Source: a virus
Lineage: Duplodnaviria > Heunggongvirae > Uroviricota > Caudoviricetes
IMG/VR virus record: IMGVR_UViG_2534681674_000025
Reading direction: 5' to 3' (one strand)
DNA: 35,774 bases
The position numbers and the translations under genes were made by a program. Below, piece after piece: positions 4,656-35,774 of the stretch. The notes under the pieces are model-generated. The model did not search any database and was not told the DNA's origin. It saw only the letters and a program-made list of their open reading frames with translations. Each line of letters begins with the position of its first letter. Within the stretch, counting starts at the first letter, position 1.

Positions 4656-5021
4656 ATGATTCTCGCCAACGACTTTCTTGAATACCTGCTCAACACAGAG
4701 CGTGATCTTGCCGTTCGCGTGCGTGAACGTTATGACATGTACCTGAAATCCCTGCCTGTACCGCAGCTCGCTGACGGAAAGATTGTTATTGATGGTCGCT
4801 ACATGATTGACAGCCACGAGGGAAATTACAGGCTTTACCGCATTGAAGGTGGCACCCCGTCCGTTATTGGCATTTACCAGCGCCCATCCTCTGCAATCGT
4901 CAATGTGATTGCCGACAGCATCCGCATCACACATCGCCATGCCGACACAGAAGACACCGTGCTGGAAATTCAGCGGCTGGCTACAGTCTGCCGCGACACC
5001 CTGAATGGCATGACGAAGTAA
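4656..5021 (+). CDS. Hypothetical protein upstream of A (121 aa)
   Basis: ORF immediately preceding the replication gene; no recognisable motif. Confidence 0.55.
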   Translation: MILANDFLEYLLNTERDLAVRVRERYDMYLKSLPVPQLADGKIVIDGRYMIDSHEGNYRLYRIEGGTPSVIGIYQRPSSAIVNVIADSIRITHRHADTEDTVLEIQRLATVCRDTLNGMTK

Positions 5022-7850: not shown

Positions 7851-7926
7851 AGCGCGCACAAAACAGGCAAAAGCGGGATTTCAGAATCCTGTAACCGATT
7901 AATTAATCAACATAAGGAAAAGCGAC

Positions 7927-16654: not shown

Positions 16655-17455
16655 ATGATTACTCCTGCACAACAACACTGGCAGAACGTGATGGCACAGC
16701 GCGCAGGCCGGGCGAATGAAGGTGTGGACCACGCCGCGCGTACCGCGCATGAAGAGGTGCTGTATCGTCTGCGTCTGGCACAGGCCAGGCTAAAGGGCGT
16801 ACAGGCCAGAAGCGCGAAAGCCGCCATCAAAAAAGAGTTGTTGCCGGACTTTTCCGGCTGGATTGAGGGAACGCTGGAGACTGACGGCGGGCAACAGGAC
16901 GAAGTAATTGCCACGCTGATGGTGTGGGCGATTGACTGCGGCGATCTTCCGCTGGCGCTGCGTATTGGTGCATATGTGGTCCGTCACAACCTCATCATGC
17001 CGGATAACTTTGGCCGTACTGCTGCCACGGTACTGACCGAAGAAATCTGCAACCCGGTACTGACGCAGGCCGGGACGGATGCCGACGCGGATTTATCCGC
17101 CTTTATCGAACCACTGGACACACTTTGGGAAATTGTCGCCAACCAGGACATGCCGGACGAAGTGCGCGCCAAATTATGCAAGGCGTGTGCCTTTGCCCGT
17201 CGTGGCCTGACAGATGCAGACAACATGGCCTCATCACTGAAGCTGCTGCGCGAAGCGATGCACCTGAACCCGAACGCAGGTGTGAAACGCGAGATTGCAA
17301 CCCTTTCCCGCGCCCTGAAAAAAGCCGATTCCGCAGCCGCACCAGAAGACGCCAGCGCACAGCAGACGCAGGACGAAAGCAGCAAAAGTAAAAAGACAAC
17401 GCAGAAGCCTGCAACACGAAAAACCACCGCGTCGCAGAAGGCGAAGCGCGGTTAA
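16655..17455 (+). CDS. M: Terminase small (endonuclease) subunit, gpM homologue (266 aa)
   Basis: KKELLPDF...ADMPDEVRAKL...AGVKREI matches gpM as recalled; basic K/R-rich C-terminal tail. Confidence 0.9.
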   Translation: MITPAQQHWQNVMAQRAGRANEGVDHAARTAHEEVLYRLRLAQARLKGVQARSAKAAIKKELLPDFSGWIEGTLETDGGQQDEVIATLMVWAIDCGDLPLALRIGAYVVRHNLIMPDNFGRTAATVLTEEICNPVLTQAGTDADADLSAFIEPLDTLWEIVANQDMPDEVRAKLCKACAFARRGLTDADNMASSLKLLREAMHLNPNAGVKREIATLSRALKKADSAAAPEDASAQQTQDESSKSKKTTQKPATRKTTASQKAKRG

Positions 17456-17558
17456 CGACTGACCCCGTCAGCGGGCGGCGTGCGCGGTGTTCCGGTTTGA
17501 CTCCGTGACCGTTTACACCGCGCACCCACCGCCCGATTTTTTTTCAGGAGTGAACTCC

Positions 17559-18053
17559 ATGAGTATGGTTGCCAGAACTGAACCAGGACCCGCAGAGGAC
17601 GACATCACCGATACCGATGATGGCGACACTCGCATTTCAGCAGGTGCATTCTGGCCGGATATTGTGCTGCGCGAGCTGCGTCTGGCGGTACGACTGCCGG
17701 GCCGCGTGACCACCTCCCGCCTGCTGCATACCGCCACTGGGGCCGTGGCTCACGTTACCCGCGAACTGGAAGCGTGGCAGCAGGAACAGCAGGCGGCTGG
17801 CCATCAGACGCTGGCCGATGTTCCGGCACCCGTAATTAACGGAGAAAGCGTCAATCTCTGGCACTGGCGCAATGCTGTTTATACCGCCACACGTGCCCTG
17901 ATTCTGGAGCGTTACCGCGATGCGGACACAACGGACAAGGGCGATCGCCGGGCGGACGCACTGGATATACAGACATCGGATTTGTGGCGCGATGTGAGCT
18001 GGGCCATCTCTGACATTCTGTGCCGCCCGCGAATCTTTGCGGAGTTGTGCTGA
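17559..18053 (+). CDS. L: Head completion/stabilisation protein, gpL homologue (164 aa)
   Basis: Position after M, size matches P2 gpL; CAGGAG RBS before ATG 17559. Confidence 0.85.
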   Translation: MSMVARTEPGPAEDDITDTDDGDTRISAGAFWPDIVLRELRLAVRLPGRVTTSRLLHTATGAVAHVTRELEAWQQEQQAAGHQTLADVPAPVINGESVNLWHWRNAVYTATRALILERYRDADTTDKGDRRADALDIQTSDLWRDVSWAISDILCRPRIFAELC

Positions 18054-18253
18054 TGAAAGTGAAGGCACTGGAAGACGACACCGTGGATTCGCTCTGTTTC
18101 CGGTACTACGGCACGACGCAGGGCGTCACCGAAAAGGTGCTGGATGCCAACCCCGGACTCTGTCAGCAGGTATTTCTGGACGCCGGGCAGGAAGTGGAGA
18201 TGCCGGAGCCGGAGAAGAAGAAACGAGAAATGATTCAGTTGTGGGGGGAGTAG
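18053..18253 (+). CDS. X: Tail protein X homologue (66 aa)
   Basis: MKVKALEDDTVDSLCFRYYGTTQGVTEKVLDANPGL parallels P2 gpX as recalled; ATGA overlap with L. Confidence 0.8.
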   Translation: MKVKALEDDTVDSLCFRYYGTTQGVTEKVLDANPGLCQQVFLDAGQEVEMPEPEKKKREMIQLWGE

Positions 18254-18255
18254 CA

Positions 18256-18579
18256 GTGAGCACCATTCAAACAGGGATCACAGAGCAGGTTATTGCGTGG
18301 CTCTTTGACCACCTGCCAACGGTGTATGCAGTAGGCGCGGCGGTCAGCATTTCCGCGCTGATGAGTCTTTATGACGGACGAACACTGGTTCAGACCGTAA
18401 CGGGATCGCTGGCGTGCGGCGTTCTTGCCATGGCCGTGGCCGGGTCGTTGCGCTTCTTCGGGTTTCCTGAAGATGCCGTAACGTTTATCGGCGCATCAAT
18501 CGGTTTTATGGGGGCAGAGAAAGTACGCGACAAGGTTATTGCGGCCTTTAATCGCAGGGTGAAGGAGAAGGACGAATGA
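18256..18579 (+). CDS. Holin (107 aa, GTG start)
   Basis: Three hydrophobic segments and a charged C-terminus (RRVKEKDE); GGGGGGAG RBS; immediately precedes the endolysin. Confidence 0.65.
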   Translation: MSTIQTGITEQVIAWLFDHLPTVYAVGAAVSISALMSLYDGRTLVQTVTGSLACGVLAMAVAGSLRFFGFPEDAVTFIGASIGFMGAEKVRDKVIAAFNRRVKEKDE

Positions 18580-18968
18580 GCAACACATTTAAATTCAGCA
18601 GCCGGAGCGAAAAGAATTTGCAGGGCGTAAATCCTGATCTGGTGAAAGTGACCCGACGGGCACTGGAAATTTCGGAAGTGGATTTTGGTATCACCGAAGG
18701 ATTGCGCAGCCGTTACCGCCAGAAGCAACTTGTGGCCACGGGTAAGAGCCATACCATAAACAGCCGCCACCTTACGGGGCATGCCGTGGATGTTGTGGCT
18801 TATGTCGGCAGCCAGGTGTCATGGGAATGGCCGCTGTACGAAAAAATCGCAGCAGCATTCAGACAGGCCAGCCAGGAACTGAATATTCCGGTGGAATGGG
18901 GCGGCGACTGGAAGACCCTGAAAGACGGACCGCATTTTCAGTTACCACACGGAGCCTATCCGGCATGA
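18576..18968 (+). CDS. Endolysin, peptidase M15 family (L-alanyl-D-glutamate endopeptidase type, 130 aa)
   Basis: Zinc-binding motifs SRHLTGHAVDV and DGPHFQL typical of M15 peptidoglycan peptidases; overlaps the holin stop. Confidence 0.85.
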   Translation: MSNTFKFSSRSEKNLQGVNPDLVKVTRRALEISEVDFGITEGLRSRYRQKQLVATGKSHTINSRHLTGHAVDVVAYVGSQVSWEWPLYEKIAAAFRQASQELNIPVEWGGDWKTLKDGPHFQLPHGAYPA

Positions 18969-19372
18969 AGCTCTGGCCCACGCTTGGCGTCGCTTTCCTT
19001 CTGATTGCCGCATGGGGAACATCCATGCGTCTGTCGTGGTCGCTGGGCCGGGAGAACGCCAGAAACGAAGCGCAGACCAGCACCCTGAAAAGTACCGTCG
19101 ACACACTGAATATCATCAGCGCCGGGGTACAGGATATGCAGCAGGTGCTGGCTCAACTCCGCGCGGAAAATCAGCAACGCAATCAGGACGGAGAGGTAAG
19201 ACGTGAACAGCTACGCAACGATATTGCAAAAGATGAATGCGCCCACGCTTTGCCTGACGCTCGTTTTACTGACAGGTTGCGCAGGCACGCAGAACGCGCC
19301 ACGGCCAGCGCCGTCAGTCCGGCTTATACCGCAGACGCTGACCATGCCGGTAACGCCTCCCCCCTTCCCTGA
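18965..19372 (+). CDS. i-spanin (Rz/LysB-like, 135 aa)
   Basis: N-terminal transmembrane helix (LGVAFLLIAAWGTSM) then a coiled-coil-like periplasmic domain; ATGA overlap with the endolysin. Confidence 0.7.
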   Translation: MKLWPTLGVAFLLIAAWGTSMRLSWSLGRENARNEAQTSTLKSTVDTLNIISAGVQDMQQVLAQLRAENQQRNQDGEVRREQLRNDIAKDECAHALPDARFTDRLRRHAERATASAVSPAYTADADHAGNASPLP

Positions 19373-19514
19373 CCCACCCACATGGGGAAACCTCGGAATA
19401 TGGGGCGACCGCCTTCTGGATGCACTGGAAACCTGTAACGCGGATAAACGGGCCATTGCTGAACTGGATAAGAGAATAGCCGAACTGACACACCAGACGG
19501 GAGTAACACAATGA
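19233..19514 (+). CDS. o-spanin lipoprotein (Rz1/LysC-like, 93 aa) overlapping the i-spanin in another frame
   Basis: Lipobox LLTGC after a short signal sequence; proline-rich mature region; overlapping arrangement as in P2 lysB/lysC. Confidence 0.6.
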   Translation: MNAPTLCLTLVLLTGCAGTQNAPRPAPSVRLIPQTLTMPVTPPPFPDPPTWGNLGIWGDRLLDALETCNADKRAIAELDKRIAELTHQTGVTQ

Positions 19515-21391
19515 CCAGTAAGAACTTTGCACTGATTACAGCCATGACACAGGCTGAACTGACCCGGAAAGTGAATGAATATCTTGCGAAGGGGTGGCAT
19601 CTTCAGGGGGACACACGGGTAGCTTACGAGCCCGGCACCCCGTGGTATCTCATGCAGGCCATGGTGGCCGATGGTGCCACCGAGACGCCCTCTGAGCCAT
19701 TACCAAACAACAAGACGCCGGAATGGTACTACGTGGTTGTGCTTGCCGGGCAGTCCAACGGCATGGCTTACGGTGAAGGGCTTCCGTTACCGGATTCTTA
19801 CGATGCTCCGGATCCGCGCATTAAACAGCTGGCGCGCCGCAGTACGGTACCCCCGGGTGGAGAGGGTTGTACGTATAACGACATCATCCCGGCTGACCAC
19901 TGTCTGCATGATGTGCAGGATATGAGTACGCTGAATCATCCGAAGGCGGACCTGAGCAAAGGTCAGTACGGCTGTGTGGGACAGGGACTTCATATTGCCA
20001 AAAAACTACTCCCGTATATCCCGAATAACGCGGGGATCCTGCTGGTACCATGCTGTCGTGGTGGTTCGGCATTCACTCAGGGCGCGGAGGGAACATTCAG
20101 TACGACCACGGGGGCCAGCCAGGATTCGGCGCGCTGGGGTGCGGGTAAGCCGTTATATCAGGACCTGATCGCACGCACCAAAGCGGCATTACAGAAGAAC
20201 CCGAAAAATGTGTTGCTGGCGGTGTGCTGGATGCAGGGCGAATTTGACATGAGCGCTGCCACCTACGCACAGCAACCGGACCTGTTCACGGCCATGCTGA
20301 AGCAGTTCCGTACTGACCTTTCCGGATTTAACGCGCAGTGCCATGGCGGCAGTGCTGCAGTTATACCGTGGATTTGTGGCGACACGACGTATTACTGGAA
20401 AAACACATACGGCACACAGTATGACTCCGTCTACGGCGCGTACAAAAACAGGGAGAGCGACAACGTTTTCTTTGTGCCGTTCATGACCGACGGTAACGGC
20501 AACAACACGCCCACCAACTTACCGGCAGAAGACCCGGATATTGCTGATGCAGGTTATTACGGCGCGCAATCCCGTAGTAATGGTAATTGGGTATCGTCAA
20601 ATCGTCCGACACATTTCAGTTCATGGGCACGCAGGGGCATTATTTCGGATCGCCTGGCAACCGCTATTCTGAACGCAGTTGGTCGAACCAGCGCCTTCAT
20701 CAGCGGTACCGCACCGGAAATCAAACCCTCGCCCGGCGGCGACACTCCATCGGGGCCGTCTGATGGTGACACATCCGTTCGTACAGTCTCCCTGCTGCCG
20801 ACAGCCGGAGAGGCTGCTGCGCAGGGCTGGACCATCACCGGCGGCAGTGTTGCGCTGGAAGATGGTGTGTTTAAGGTTACCAAGCAGAGCAATAAAACTT
20901 GGTCCCTGATGCATCCGGTGGATGACGCAGTCTCCCTGCTGACACGGGGTGGCAGACTGAGCTGTAAGTTTCGACTGTCAGGCGCACTGACCAACAACCA
21001 GTTCGGTCTGGGAATTTATCTGTATACCGATGTAGCGTTACCTGACGTCGTGGCGATGACCGGGACTGGTAACCCGTTCCTGATGTCGTTCTTCACCCAG
21101 ACCACAGACGGCAAACTGAATCTGATGCATCACAAGAAAGCCGGAAACACAAAGTTGGGCGAGTTCGGGAATTACAGTAACGACTGGCAGACGCTGGAGC
21201 TGGTGTTCACCGCCGGCAGTGCCACGGTTACTCCGAAACTGAATGGAGTGGCTGGCCCGGCATTCCAGGTCATAAAAGACAGTCTGACACTGGGGCTGAA
21301 TGCGCTGACGTTAACTGATATCACTAAAAATGCCGCGTACGGCGTCGATATCGGCAGCCTGGTGCTGGAAATCAATAATCCCGCAGTATAA
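19511..21391 (+). CDS. NanS-p-like O-acetyl esterase (DUF1737 + SASA/SGNH hydrolase domains, 626 aa), moron
   Basis: N-terminal DUF1737-like segment (AMTQAELTRKVNEYLAKGWHLQGD); SGNH-type catalytic motif VLAGQSNGMAYGEG; architecture of prophage-encoded NanS-p esterases of enterohaemorrhagic E. coli as recalled. Confidence 0.8.
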   Translation: MTSKNFALITAMTQAELTRKVNEYLAKGWHLQGDTRVAYEPGTPWYLMQAMVADGATETPSEPLPNNKTPEWYYVVVLAGQSNGMAYGEGLPLPDSYDAPDPRIKQLARRSTVPPGGEGCTYNDIIPADHCLHDVQDMSTLNHPKADLSKGQYGCVGQGLHIAKKLLPYIPNNAGILLVPCCRGGSAFTQGAEGTFSTTTGASQDSARWGAGKPLYQDLIARTKAALQKNPKNVLLAVCWMQGEFDMSAATYAQQPDLFTAMLKQFRTDLSGFNAQCHGGSAAVIPWICGDTTYYWKNTYGTQYDSVYGAYKNRESDNVFFVPFMTDGNGNNTPTNLPAEDPDIADAGYYGAQSRSNGNWVSSNRPTHFSSWARRGIISDRLATAILNAVGRTSAFISGTAPEIKPSPGGDTPSGPSDGDTSVRTVSLLPTAGEAAAQGWTITGGSVALEDGVFKVTKQSNKTWSLMHPVDDAVSLLTRGGRLSCKFRLSGALTNNQFGLGIYLYTDVALPDVVAMTGTGNPFLMSFFTQTTDGKLNLMHHKKAGNTKLGEFGNYSNDWQTLELVFTAGSATVTPKLNGVAGPAFQVIKDSLTLGLNALTLTDITKNAAYGVDIGSLVLEINNPAV

Positions 21392-21414
21392 GGAAGAGCA
21401 GGAGAGCAAAACAG

Positions 21415-21882
21415 ATGCTTAAGACAAACAGTCTGCGAGAGTCCATGCTTCATGGATGTCGGTGGTGCCAGGCTAATCCCGAGAAATTCACCATTTTCGT
21501 GGAGAGCGGCAACATTGAAACGACCGGAGAAGCGCCCTCGTTTGTTTACCGCTATCAGATGGTGATGTTTGTCATGGATTACGCCGGAGAGCTGGACGAC
21601 CTCACGCTGCCGCTGCTGGCGTGGTTATCCGAAAATCAGCCACAGTTGTTGCTCAATCCGGAGCGTAATCAGGACATCAAATTTTCTGCCGTTATCAATG
21701 ACGATGACAGCGCCGATCTCCTGTTTACGCTCCCCCTGCGGGAACGCGTTCGCATCACGCGCAACAGTCAGGGCACACCGCAGGCAGAACACCTGCCGGA
21801 GCCAAAACCCCGTCTGCCTTCTTCCGAAGGCGACTGGTCGCATGTATTCCAGGATGTGACGTGGGGTGAAAGCGATGGATAA
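21415..21882 (+). CDS. R: Tail completion protein, gpR homologue (155 aa)
   Basis: Size identical to P2 gpR (155 aa); MLK...SLR N-terminus and LAWL.ENQP core recalled from gpR. Confidence 0.85.
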   Translation: MLKTNSLRESMLHGCRWCQANPEKFTIFVESGNIETTGEAPSFVYRYQMVMFVMDYAGELDDLTLPLLAWLSENQPQLLLNPERNQDIKFSAVINDDDSADLLFTLPLRERVRITRNSQGTPQAEHLPEPKPRLPSSEGDWSHVFQDVTWGESDG

Positions 21883-22510
21883 GGCATTCACCCGCGTGGA
21901 TGAAACCTTTGAGGCTATCCGCGACAGCCTGAATCAGCAGGCCATCAATAACATCGCCAGAAAGCTGGCACAGGATTTACGTCGCGCCCAGCAGGCACGT
22001 ATCCGGTCACAAAAAGCGCCGGACGGGACCGAATGGACACCACGCAGACGCCGCGTAACCCGGATATAGGAGCGCATTCGCTTTATCTGGAATAACGAAG
22101 CACGCACGCTGAAAAACTGGCATCACGACACGGGGAAATACGGGCGAACCATTACCGGGTGGGATGAGGATAAAAACAATATCCGCACGTTTTACCGGGA
22201 TGACATCGACCGTTTTCTGGAAATACGCACCCGGCGCATCAACCAGGACAGCACAAAGCGCGTCCCCATGTTCGTAAAACTGCGCACCGCCCGCTACCTG
22301 AAAGCCCGTGCAGATGCCTCCGGTGTGACGGTGGGTTACAGCGGCGTGGCCGCACGTATTGCACGCGTTCATCAGTTCGGTGAGCGCGATCAGGTTGCGC
22401 CGGGCATTTTCACCGATTACCCGGTACGTGAGCTGTTGGGTATCAGCCAGGCAGATGAGCGCCTGATTTATAACACGGTGCTGGGCCGGATTGCGGAGGC
22501 TGTACGGTGA
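21875..22510 (+). pseudogene. S: Tail completion/virion morphogenesis gene S interrupted by a 171-bp in-frame insertion carrying a TAG codon
   Basis: N-part (64 codons) ends at TAG 22067-22069; frame stays open to 22510; C-part carries the conserved VGYSGVAARIARVHQFG motif. Segment 22064-22234 is flanked by direct repeat ACCCGG (22058-22063, 22229-22234); removing it gives about 154 codons, matching P2 S (150 aa as recalled). Confidence 0.7.
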
Positions 22511-23088
22511 GCGCAGAACTCATGCGACTGCTGAGCAACATCATCCGCACCGGGATCATCTCTGAAGTTGATGAGAAGTCCTGGCGCGTGCGCGTTCGCA
22601 GCGGCGAACTGGAAACAGGCTGGTTGCGCTGGAACACCACGCGCGCGGGAGCCTTCAATGTGTGGCTGCCGCCATCACCAGGCGAACAGGTGGTAATTGC
22701 CTGCATTGGCGGCAACCCGGAAACCGCCATGATAATTGGCAGCCTGTGGAGTGATGCCAGTCCGGCCCCCGGCAAAAGCCTGAAAGAAATCGTGGTCAGC
22801 GCGCCGGATGGCGCGGTGTTCCGCTACGACGCAGACGCTGGCGCACTGAGCGCCAGCGGCATGAAAACAGCCACCCTGCAGGCATCCGTCAGCGTGACAC
22901 TGGATACGCCCGTCGTGGAATGCACAAACCTTCTGAGAACAGCGACGCTTGACGTCACAAAAGGGGGAAAGATGAGCGGCAATATCACGCACAGCGGCGG
23001 CAACTTCACCTCAAACGGCATCACAGTGCATACGCATAAACACGGTGGCGTTAAAGGTGGCAGCGATTCGACAGGAGGCCCGCAGTGA
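22507..23088 (+). CDS. V: Baseplate spike/assembly protein, gpV homologue (GTG start; alternative ATG at 22522)
   Basis: Position and size; glycine-rich C-terminus with HTHKHGG metal-binding-like motif typical of gpV spikes. Confidence 0.88.
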   Translation: MSAELMRLLSNIIRTGIISEVDEKSWRVRVRSGELETGWLRWNTTRAGAFNVWLPPSPGEQVVIACIGGNPETAMIIGSLWSDASPAPGKSLKEIVVSAPDGAVFRYDADAGALSASGMKTATLQASVSVTLDTPVVECTNLLRTATLDVTKGGKMSGNITHSGGNFTSNGITVHTHKHGGVKGGSDSTGGPQ

Positions 23089-23435
23089 CAGCCCGCTACA
23101 CAGGAATGAACCCGGACGGGACGGGAAACCTGAATGATATGGAGCACCTGAAACAGTCAGCCAGGGACATCCTGACCACCCCGCTGGCCAGCCGGGTTAT
23201 GCGACGGGAATATGGCAGCCTTGTACCTGATTTGATTGACGAACCCATGAATAACACCACGCGTCTGCAATGCATGAGTGCTGCCGTGATTGCGCTGACA
23301 CGATGGGAACCCCGCATTGCCCTGGACGCCATCGACGTTGTCTGGAAAGCGGGAGGCCGCGCCGGGGTGACGCTGTCGGGCACTGTCATGCAGACCATGC
23401 AGAATGTTGAGTTAACCATCACGCTGAGGGAGTAA
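23085..23435 (+). CDS. W: Baseplate wedge protein, gpW homologue (116 aa)
   Basis: Size matches P2 gpW (115 aa); gpW/gp25-like. Confidence 0.88.
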   Translation: MTARYTGMNPDGTGNLNDMEHLKQSARDILTTPLASRVMRREYGSLVPDLIDEPMNNTTRLQCMSAAVIALTRWEPRIALDAIDVVWKAGGRAGVTLSGTVMQTMQNVELTITLRE

Positions 23436-23438
23436 ATC

Positions 23439-24335
23439 ATGCCTGCTGTTGACCTTTCCCAGTTACCGGAACCCGCCATCATCGCGGAGCCTGACTTTGA
23501 AGCAATTCTGGCTGACACAAAGGCCATGATGATTGCGTCCTATCCTGCCGAACAGCGTGAAGCCGTCTCCGCCGCGCTGGAGCTGGAATCGGAGCCCCTG
23601 AACGTTATCGCTCAAACCATGTCTTTTCGTGAAATGCTGTTACGCCAGCGGGTTAACGAGGGCGCACGCGCCTGCATGTTAAGCCACGGTTCAGGGACAA
23701 ACCTGGACAACCTCGCGGGCAATATGAACACAAAGCGCCTGGTTATCACTCCGGCAACGGATACCACCGACGCGGTGATGGAGAGCGACACCTCGCTGAG
23801 ACTGCGGGCGCAGCGGGCGTATGACGGCCTGAGTGTTGCTGGCCCGTCAGGTGCATACGAGTATTTTGCACGCAGCGCCAGCGGTCTGGTGCGTGATGCG
23901 CGGGCCATCAGCCCGTCTCCGGCCTGTGTGACGGTTTCCATTCTGTCCACTGAAGGCGACGGCACAGCAACGGAGGCGTTGCTTAATACCGTTCGCGCCG
24001 TTCTGAATGCAGAGGATACCCGCCCGGTGGCCGACCGCCTGACGGTACAGAGCGCCAGAATCGTGACATGGCGGCTGAATGCAAAACTGTACTTTTACCC
24101 CGGCCCGGAATCCGAACCTATTCTGGCCGCGGCGGAATCGTCATTCAGGAAGTGGCTGGCTGAACAGGGGCTTATCGGTCAGGACGTGGCGTTGTCCGCC
24201 ATTGCTGCCGCACTGCATGTGCACGGTGTGCAACGCGTGGAGATAATCGAACCCACACAGAATATGGCCATCAGCGACATACAGGCGGCGCGCTGTGAGT
24301 CATTCACCATCAGCGAAGGTGGGCGCAATGAGTAA
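23439..24335 (+). CDS. J: Baseplate assembly protein, gpJ homologue (298 aa)
   Basis: Size and position match P2 gpJ (about 302 aa). Confidence 0.9.
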   Translation: MPAVDLSQLPEPAIIAEPDFEAILADTKAMMIASYPAEQREAVSAALELESEPLNVIAQTMSFREMLLRQRVNEGARACMLSHGSGTNLDNLAGNMNTKRLVITPATDTTDAVMESDTSLRLRAQRAYDGLSVAGPSGAYEYFARSASGLVRDARAISPSPACVTVSILSTEGDGTATEALLNTVRAVLNAEDTRPVADRLTVQSARIVTWRLNAKLYFYPGPESEPILAAAESSFRKWLAEQGLIGQDVALSAIAAALHVHGVQRVEIIEPTQNMAISDIQAARCESFTISEGGRNE

Positions 24336-27557: not shown

Positions 27558-28130
27558 CTATTTATACAATACAGCACCGCTCTTTTTAGTTATATATGTG
27601 CAGTTCGATGGTATATCTTTATTTATAAAAGACATTGCACCTATTTTTACATTATCCCCAATTTTACGGGATAATCCAATGATGCAACAATTAGCTCCGA
27701 TATCAACGTTGCTACCAATTTTTACTCTTGAACCAGGTATGTCACCATCTATCTGTCCAATGGTCGTATTCTGTCGTAACACCAGATTTTCACCAGCATC
27801 AACAGCAAAATGAACAACAATTCCAGCATGATGGGGAATTGTTAACCCTTTTCCAATATTTGCGCCCAATCCAATTTCGCAACCAAATTTGTTAATTATT
27901 TTACTGTTTAACTTCTTGGCTGCTTTCTTATGTAATTTATTACCATTAATATACATTTCGTTAGCCAACCGCCACCAGAAAAGGAAATTCCTGTTACGCT
28001 GCTTTTTCTCTCTTAAAAGCCTCCAGATATCCATACGTTTCCGCCGAATTACTTCATGTTTCCAGAAGTTTTTTAAATTAGTAGAGTTCCCAAATAAAAC
28101 AAAGTGAATTGCCATTAGGTAAGACAGCAC
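27558..28130 (-). CDS. Hexapeptide-repeat (left-handed beta-helix) acetyltransferase, CysE/NodL/NeuO-like, in an AT-rich island (190 aa from GTG 28130; longest ORF to 28163)
   Basis: Hexapeptide repeats (IGANIGKGLTIPHHAGIVV, IGSNVDIGANCCIIG, IGDNVKIGAMSFI); RBS AAGGAG 6 nt before GTG; strongly AT-rich relative to flanking phage genes. Confidence 0.8.
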   Translation of the reverse strand: MLSYLMAIHFVLFGNSTNLKNFWKHEVIRRKRMDIWRLLREKKQRNRNFLFWWRLANEMYINGNKLHKKAAKKLNSKIINKFGCEIGLGANIGKGLTIPHHAGIVVHFAVDAGENLVLRQNTTIGQIDGDIPGSRVKIGSNVDIGANCCIIGLSRKIGDNVKIGAMSFINKDIPSNCTYITKKSGAVLYK

Positions 28131-35633: not shown

Positions 35634-35774
35634 ATGTCGCAAAAATCGCTTACGGCCATCACGTTCTGCGTGACGGTAATCCTCATCATCTGGATGCTAC
35701 ACGGTTCGCTGTGTGAAATACGGATGAGCTTCTGGGGAGCGGAGTTTGCGGCGTTCTTACAGTGTAAGCAGTAA
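35634..35774 (+). CDS. hok: Hok/Gef-family type I toxin (46 aa: MSQKSLTAITFCVTVILIIWMLHGSLCEIRMSFWGAEFAAFLQCKQ)
   Basis: N-terminal transmembrane helix followed by the family signature SLCEIR...E.AAF; AAGGAG RBS 8 nt upstream; below the ORF-track cut-off, read from the sequence; stop codon is the last 3 bases of the window. Confidence 0.75.
   Translation: MSQKSLTAITFCVTVILIIWMLHGSLCEIRMSFWGAEFAAFLQCKQ

Follow-up and report, generated by a model that had tools for sequence, protein, structure and literature searches.

The window analysed here (35,774 nucleotides; IMG/VR record IMGVR_UViG_2534681674_000025) is a P88-like prophage (Xuanwuvirus, Peduoviridae) of Escherichia coli with the P2-type late gene order gpO-gpN-gpM-L-X-lysis-R-S-V. 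At positions 19511-21391, between the lysis gene lysC and the tail completion gene R, it carries an intact gene for a NanS-p-type sialate 9-O-acetyl esterase, as judged by homology. The reading that we favour, with some reserve, is that this gene forms an optional cassette of the late morphogenesis and lysis operon (gpO through S) and that its product is a lysis-released, probably capsid-tethered enzyme directed against mucin.

An intact esterase gene at an optional site

The list of open reading frames (ORFs) gives an uninterrupted plus-strand frame of 626 amino acids (aa), ATG to TAA, at exactly these positions. The domain search agrees with the first-pass annotation of the window, which had described a protein with DUF1737 and SASA/SGNH features, and revealed an additional domain, DUF6645, not mentioned there. 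All three Pfam domains score above their gathering cut-offs: PF08410 DUF1737 (aa 4-53, 27.5 bits versus a cut-off of 24), SASA (aa 75-271, E 3e-12), and PF20350 DUF6645 (aa 477-587, E 2.2e-19). A match to PHROG 143 spans the whole protein. Among the sequences in the Protein Data Bank (PDB), 3pt5, the solved structure for NanS/YjhS, aligns with residues 69-388 (E 1.3e-122), and 6yp6, a crystallised NanS-p C-terminal domain, aligns with residues 431-623 (E 3.7e-30). Two SGNH motifs are invariant across the alleles aligned, GQSN (Ser82) in block I and RPTH (His368) in block IV. The SGNH blocks of NanS-p have been described, and the RPTH variant is known from the Shiga toxin (Stx) 2 phage 86 (PMC10462455). 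The gene and its parts are as follows:

19511-21391, plus strand: esterase coding sequence, NanS-p type, 626 aa, stop TAA at 21389-21391 (ORF list, Pfam, PHROG, matches to 3pt5 and 6yp6)
19511-19675, plus strand: DUF1737 domain, aa 1-55, P2-type clade, proposed capsid anchor (PF08410, AlphaFold2 model, ratio of nonsynonymous to synonymous substitution rates)
19676-19717, plus strand: linker 1, aa 56-69, hypervariable and disordered in the model; recombination of the enzyme body has its 5' boundary here (model confidence, identity profile)
19718-20680, plus strand: SGNH/SASA catalytic domain, aa 70-390, with GQSN and RPTH (match to 3pt5)
20681-20800, plus strand: linker 2, aa 391-430, rich in Pro, Ser, and Gly (alignment; lies between the two PDB-matched regions)
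20801-21388, plus strand: C-terminal lectin-like jelly-roll domain, DUF6645 (6yp6, E 3.7e-30; PF20350)

By homology, the product is a sialate 9-O-acetyl esterase of NanS-p type with all three domains intact. The gene is already annotated and is neither rare nor new as a family: the NCBI Prokaryotic Genome Annotation Pipeline (PGAP) labels the identical gene WP_000202152.1 'DUF6645 domain-containing protein', and it is a common member of NanS-p. The possibility of a pseudogene was ruled out, the window copy being intact and under purifying selection. [quoted passage not shown] A genome of the O104:H4 outbreak lineage carries a P2-type esterase 94.7% identical to that of the window, and this allele was probably among those assayed earlier.

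The presence of the gene at this site is optional. Among 5,426 complete E. coli genomes surveyed, the slot between lysC and R is occupied by the esterase in 373 (about 7%), and lysC adjoins R in 686 (about 13%). The phages P88, PhiR44_2, 520873, 503458, 500465-2, Chuche, P884B11, and Shae_phiSM have flanks about 97% identical to those of the window, are about 1.9 kb shorter, and lysC abuts R in each. A check for relatives of this kind had been suggested in the first-pass annotation. The segment that distinguishes the occupied site is slightly longer than the gene and comprises some 18 codons from the end of lysC, the esterase, and some 14 codons from the start of R:

19459-21457 (approximate), no strand assigned: segment replacing the lysC-R junction of esterase-less relatives (P88 alignment; comparison of LysC and R with an empty-site prophage)

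The carriers include strain 55989, whose copy shares 99.6% identity with the window. Three GenBank phage records also carry the esterase, and each of them ends inside the gene. NanS-p esterases, under discussion as fitness and virulence factors of enterohaemorrhagic E. coli, are commonly viewed as cargo carried by Stx and other lambdoid prophages; here, about 7% of complete E. coli genomes, 55989 and the O104:H4 outbreak lineage among them, have a copy in a P2-family prophage. A scan of GTDB species representatives yielded five loci only, of which none was P2-type.

Decayed P2-type alleles were also found (L017 and L018, with the esterase at 5019 and 7182, respectively; L016; L038). One of these has an in-frame internal deletion that leaves a 286-aa protein with DUF1737 and the end of the C-terminal domain. 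The others have frameshifts after 218 or 273 codons, possibly sequencing errors in draft assemblies. Additionally, a 752-aa protein encoded on a 6.6-Mb contig (P0022) consists of a P2-type esterase cut near its C-terminus and fused to a tail-collar domain (PF07484); the fusion may reflect genuine recombination or else an artefact of assembly or annotation.

The location inside a morphogenesis operon, together with the capsid binding of DUF1737 in the lambdoid phage phi24B, could be taken to mean that the esterase is an essential, overlooked structural gene of P2-like phages. We give this explanation next to no credence: the eight phages and 686 E. coli genomes listed above lack the esterase, with lysC abutting R, truncated alleles occur in otherwise similar prophages, and essentiality is ruled out, phages without the esterase having been isolated as particles. 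The gene is thus not a structural component carried by all P2-like phages.

The surroundings of the cassette were found as the first-pass annotation had placed them, with the lysis genes on the 5' side and R on the 3' side. The late genes lie on one strand in the order gpO, gpN, gpM, L, X, holin, M15 endolysin, LysB, LysC, esterase, R, S, V, and onward, and they overlap or are separated by gaps of at most ~100 nt:

18256-19514, plus strand: lysis cassette 5' of the esterase (Pfam, PHROG, PGAP)
18256-18579, plus strand: holin
18576-18968, plus strand: M15 endolysin
18965-19372, plus strand: LysB/Rz
19326-19514, plus strand: LysC/Rz1
19499-19514, plus strand: Shine-Dalgarno sequence GGGAG (19499-19503) and ATGA (19511-19514), in which the esterase start overlaps the lysC stop (read from the sequence)
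21415-21882, plus strand: tail completion gene R, 23 nt 3' of the esterase, with a Shine-Dalgarno sequence AGGAG at 21400-21404 (Pfam P2_Phage_GpR, E 1.4e-38)

The esterase lacks a separate promoter or terminator, and its base composition does not set it apart. In consensus scans, no plus-strand terminator-like site was found between lysC and R, the sole plus-strand one in 16000-24000 lying inside the holin gene, and two weak promoter-like sites were detected in the 16-24 kb region versus 3.7 in shuffled sequences. The G+C content of the gene is 0.56 overall (0.52-0.57 across the gene), and that of the flanks is 0.54-0.60. The earlier designation of the gene as a 'moron' therefore holds in so far as it is present or absent at the same site in close relatives; it does not hold with respect to signals of its own or a deviant G+C content. 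Expression as part of the late operon, also proposed initially, is plausible given the overlap with the lysC stop and the 23-nt gap to R, and is a natural inference from the P2 paradigm. A simple pattern for Ogr sites, the P2-type late-promoter dyad TGT-N12-ACA, gave two matches versus ~9 expected by chance, none of them near the late operon; probably the late activator site of this genus differs from this pattern. Because the dyad pattern is uninformative, the operon assignment rests on gene packing and the P2 paradigm.

Mosaic structure of the esterase genes

Judged from identity profiles, the enzyme body belongs to a recombining pool common to prophage families that are unrelated; the N-terminal module, by contrast, goes with the phage family. 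Over positions 19717-21376 the window shares 87% nucleotide identity with alleles of Stx1a phages, which bears out the kinship with lambdoid nanS-p genes suggested by the first-pass annotation. At the protein level, comparison with an Stx1a-phage allele gives identities of 35% (DUF1737), 0% (linker 1), 89% (catalytic domain), and 84% (C-terminal domain). The corresponding values for other P88-like alleles are 95% in DUF1737, 7% in linker 1, and 84-96% in the catalytic domain. The identity profile shifts in linker 1, which is only 0-7% identical between alleles and in which the predicted local distance difference test score (pLDDT) of the AlphaFold2 model is below 50 from residue 56 onward. Nucleotide positions 19765-19964 are nearer to the Stx1a allele than to other P88-like alleles. 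A stretch of very high similarity lies further downstream:

20765-21264, plus strand: stretch of recent cross-family exchange, with 98-100% nucleotide identity to an allele from a lambdoid prophage of Escherichia albertii (sliding-window identity)

The E. albertii allele (L008) is located among genes for RusA, Q antiterminator, a methylase, P21 holin, and lysozyme, with the esterase between methylase and holin, that is, in a lambdoid context. The window protein's C-terminal domain is 97% identical to this lambdoid allele versus 31-39% to those of a second P2 lineage.

The DUF1737 domain shows the opposite distribution. P2-type copies are 55-100% identical among themselves, and copies from different phage families 22-39%; the window domain shares 22-35% with the lambdoid types. 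Pattern scans of IMG/VR revealed 33 loci with the DUF1737 clade of the window, and all 33 were P2-type with the esterase in the same lysC-R slot. Seven of these (L039-L042, L051-L053) represent the second P2 lineage, in which gpN is 62%, R 58%, and DUF1737 55-65% identical to those of the window and the endolysin is of lysozyme type. This lineage was found in 14 complete E. coli genomes, such as NCTC9112; a megablast search of the phage collection gave no match, so that it is known as prophage only. The enzyme bodies within this lineage diverge among themselves (63-66% identity in the catalytic and 28-41% in the C-terminal domain). In at least one of its members (L039) the esterase is followed by a small DUF1378 gene, and such a gene also follows nanS-p in Stx phages (PMC10462455).

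The DUF1737 clade and the slot are common to both P2 lineages, which suggests that the esterase has long been resident in the P2 family. A recent import of the whole gene from a lambdoid phage was ruled out, since DUF1737 and the slot are shared with a lineage whose gpN is only 62% identical. Thus, of the initial proposal that a moron had been exchanged across phage families, the exchange of catalytic and C-terminal parts stands and the transfer of the whole gene does not, DUF1737 being P2-type-specific. A database search with the 69-aa N-terminus alone returned truncated fragments only.

A third type of N-terminus occurs in Mu-like prophages (L054-L056). Their 682-aa esterase (positions 10001-12049 in L054) has the SASA and DUF6645 body preceded by about 110 residues unrelated to DUF1737, for which no Pfam or PHROG family was matched, and is followed by DUF1378 and DUF826 genes. 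Trading of the enzyme part between alleles of unrelated, co-resident prophage families fits Schmidt's idea of a 'mobile gene pool'.

Capsid allele and proposed role of the esterase

Proteins encoded by the late genes were compared between 28 carriers and 16 non-carriers of the esterase (44 loci). The gene for the major capsid protein gpN is the only late gene not adjacent to the cassette whose types separate the two groups:

15557-16609, plus strand: major capsid protein gpN, matching P2 gpN in 7jw1 (E 2.5e-81); the allele block 15674-16048 (codons 40-164) is tied to esterase presence

The gpN types never mix: the 28 carriers lie at 98.9% or above and the 16 non-carriers at 95.7% or below. For gpO, located upstream, and for gpM, L, X, and holin, located between gpN and the cassette, there are types that occur in carriers and non-carriers alike. 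Within the 375-bp block at 15674-16048, nucleotide identity is 99.5-100% for carriers versus 86.5-88.7% for non-carriers, and 11 amino-acid differences at residues 85-164 are fixed. The genome-wide totals are similar, with the carrier-type block in 376 E. coli records and the occupied site in 373 genomes. Both gpN alleles occur in E. coli OkiPb01713, a bovine strain from Okinawa, whose esterase-carrying prophage is 100% identical to the window over 18900-22000. A second P88-like prophage of this strain (L057, 2851382-2865482) lacks the esterase and has the other gpN allele; its L is identical to that of the window. Two related prophages with different capsid alleles are therefore co-resident in one host genome.

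The DUF1737 domain of P2-type phages is under purifying selection. Within the P88-like lineage, its 55 codons show 11 synonymous versus 3 nonsynonymous differences, which corresponds to a ratio of nonsynonymous to synonymous substitution rates of 0.06; between the two P2 lineages this ratio is 0.09-0.18. The AlphaFold2 model of the window domain (pLDDT 74) consists of a strand (residues 3-11), a helix (14-26), and a hairpin (30-40/43-54), followed by the disordered linker. This topology agrees with the published description of the N-terminal domain of phi24B gp84. According to a 2026 cryo-electron microscopy preprint, the DUF1737 domain of gp84 forms a hexamer in capsid hexons and is held by a tyrosine of the hairpin loop (bioRxiv 10.64898/2026.04.10.717836). 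The window domain has a different hairpin loop at the position of this anchor, Tyr42. Its hairpin, EPG(T/V)PWYLMQAM, is the most conserved part of P2-type DUF1737, invariant in both P2 lineages, and unlike that of both lambdoid types. A PDB fold search with the model gave only generic small alpha/beta matches (best E 0.065), the library containing no phi24B capsid entry.

The following sequence of events would account for these observations. The protein would be made only once the prophage enters lytic growth and would leave the cell, having no signal peptide, at lysis by holin, endolysin, and spanin. Because DUF1737 takes the place of a signal peptide, release of the esterase must depend on phage lysis. 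Outside, the SGNH domain would remove 9-O-acetyl groups from the sialic acids of mucin, assisted by the C-terminal carbohydrate-binding domain, and the resulting N-acetylneuraminic acid could be used by surviving kin. Like its homologue on phi24B, DUF1737 probably tethers the esterase to the exterior of P2-type capsids, so that virions would carry a mucin-directed enzyme. The proposed tether draws on the example of phi24B, on a clade that is specific to the phage family and under purifying selection, on co-inheritance with a gpN allele that is not contiguous with the cassette, and on the precedent of P4 Psu, an external, non-essential decoration protein accepted by P2-type gpN shells (PMC7552001). 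Provided that the remainder of the scheme is correct, we put the chances of such a tether at about even.

More tentatively, NanS-p proteins may be viewed in general as modular virion accessories, each composed of an exchangeable enzyme body and a family-specific capsid anchor, that is, a DUF1737 subtype or the unrelated Mu-like module. The P88-like anchor would then have co-evolved with the 375-bp gpN block, and only capsids of that allele would display the esterase. If so, no decoration protein would have been known before to be encoded by a phage of the P2 family itself. We regard this extension as possible rather than probable.

Several points weigh against the proposed role. The enzyme is dispensable, as seen from the frameshifted or internally deleted esterases of some carriers. 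Identity between the P2-type and phi24B-type DUF1737 is only 22-35%. The 11 gpN differences map to the E-loop, to the spine-helix region, and to the outer-surface segment that comes next (7jw1; PMC7552001), outside the A-domain apex and pore; Sid and Psu bind gpN at the A-domain apex (PMC7552001). In phi24B, gp84 occupies only the threefold-axis hexon of a T=9 capsid (bioRxiv 10.64898/2026.04.10.717836), and no hexon lies on the threefold axis of P2-type capsids, which are T=7. The association between gpN and the esterase could result from lineage structure, since the samples are phylogenetically dependent and the joint table comprises 44 loci. DUF1737 could stay with the phage backbone merely by being too diverged to recombine with lambdoid alleles. 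The Ogr pattern does not inform on late expression, and, with an amber codon in gene S and an inserted IS3 element, the window prophage may itself be unable to complete virions. Neither an experiment nor a virion proteome was found for any P2-type carrier.

Some of these points would be expected if the gene were pure cargo, that is, a soluble esterase released at lysis which benefits the lysogen population through acetylated sialic acids, with DUF1737 having no role in the virion and the capsid-allele link reflecting shared ancestry of a sub-lineage. The optional state of the cassette (373 occupied versus 686 empty genomes), the growth on Neu5,9Ac2 documented for lambdoid homologues (PMC8065619, PMC5923452), the decayed alleles that the phage evidently tolerates, the T=7 capsid without the phi24B binding site, and the location of the gpN differences off the hexon pore are all in line with this explanation. 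It accounts poorly for a gene that has neither its own promoter or terminator nor an anomalous composition, for strong purifying selection on a DUF1737 that stays with the phage family as bodies are shuffled, and for a gpN association that persists despite recombination of the intervening gpM, L, X, and holin; also, the homologous phi24B domain is a demonstrated capsid binder. We therefore consider pure cargo rather unlikely, although it deserves serious attention. The capsid-allele tie and the binding of the phi24B domain suggest a virion-associated role rather than one that purely benefits the lysogen.

Literature searches pairing DUF1737 or NanS with P2-like phages or Peduoviridae returned nothing relevant. 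The family-specific N-terminal module and its co-inheritance with a capsid allele offer a concrete test of the claim that DUF1737 is a capsid anchor. Confirmation would provide a natural system for studying the co-evolution of decoration and capsid proteins and the phage display of mucus-active enzymes.

The carrier prophage and the closest known systems

Outside the cassette, the window shares 97% nucleotide identity with P88 and its relatives. The corresponding prophage of OkiPb01713 is integrated between yecA and the leuZ-cysT-glyW tRNA genes. The lysis cassette and the esterase of the window prophage are intact. The tail-completion/virion morphogenesis gene S (21866-22510) contains an in-frame amber codon at 22067-22069 (CAG to TAG) and is classified by PGAP as a pseudogene with an internal stop. 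This change is private to the window copy, CAG being present in 24 related loci, and probably makes this copy defective in tail completion. An IS3-family transposase gene with a programmed frameshift (annotated AL1L pseudoknot) occupies ~9702-10915 in the early/replication region. Gene S of the P88-like prophage of strain UMNK88 (L071) is also interrupted by an element of the IS3 family.

Two further groups of accessory genes were identified. Genes for ParM-like segregation or partitioning functions (~7926-9204) and a Hok/Gef toxin gene at the right end (35634-35774; both according to PGAP annotation of the identical locus) represent plasmid-like maintenance functions in a P2-family element. 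A gene on the minus strand (27558-28130, G+C ~0.36) encodes a 190-aa protein resembling hexapeptide-repeat acetyltransferases, which PGAP names serine acetyltransferase; the Pfam Hexapep matches are weak and under the cut-off. It is located in a foreign island of low G+C content (27.5-28 kb), flanked by the tail-fibre assembly gene and by tail genes, the classical position of morons. The window prophage thus pairs an O-acetyl esterase with a possible O-acetyltransferase.

This acetyltransferase-like gene hints at acetylation-based surface modification and bears on one more explanation, according to which the esterase is a virion enzyme that aids infection by de-O-acetylating bacterial surface glycans (O-antigen, acetylated polysialic or other capsules) and so exposes a receptor, host mucin not being its target. 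A function of this kind has been raised for NanS-p in a review (PMC8065619), and the esterase gene does lie among virion genes. We nevertheless find it very improbable. P88 and other relatives infect without an esterase, sialic acid, free or bound to mucin, is the substrate of the closest solved and characterised homologues, and no data tie the esterase to adsorption. Placement on the capsid, if as in phi24B, would also differ from the usual tail site of receptor-modifying enzymes.

The closest relatives of the proposed lysis-released, capsid-tethered enzyme are the NanS-p proteins of lambdoid Stx phages, such as 933W L0105/z1466 and phi24B gp84 (vb_24B_21). They share the composition of DUF1737, SASA/SGNH, and lectin-like DUF6645, the conserved SGNH blocks, and a gene position in the late operon beside the lysis genes; the window protein is 71-89% identical to lambdoid alleles in the catalytic domain and up to 97% in the C-terminal domain. 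The window gene differs in being carried by a P2-family myovirus, in its position after the lysis genes and before R instead of after Q/stx and before holin, in a DUF1737 that belongs to a separate clade (22-35% identity), and in having no linkage to stx.

Chromosomal NanS (YjhS) is exported with a signal peptide and is encoded in the nanCMS operon. Its catalytic domain (3pt5) is homologous to that of the window protein over ~320 residues, with an identical GQSN in block I. NanS consists of the catalytic domain alone (a chain of 337 residues in 3pt5), whereas the window protein has DUF1737 in place of the signal peptide and, in addition, the C-terminal lectin-like domain. The body of the Mu-like esterase (682 aa, e.g. 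P0097), also composed of SASA and DUF6645, is ~60% identical to that of the window. Its gene is followed by those for DUF1378 and DUF826, as in Stx phages, the former also occurring in the second P2 lineage, but it sits between gin and com/mom at the prophage end.

The capsid decoration proteins P4 Psu, T4 Hoc, and lambda gpD may be regarded as functional analogues, there being no sequence or fold relationship found between them and the window protein. Hoc displays mucin-binding domains on capsids. Finally, the esterase resembles the classical morons of the P2 family, low-G+C genes located beside the tail-fibre genes, in being optional and in interrupting a conserved gene order. Classical morons have their own signals and a deviant composition, as exemplified by the G+C content of 0.36 in the acetyltransferase-like gene at 27558-28130; the esterase has neither.

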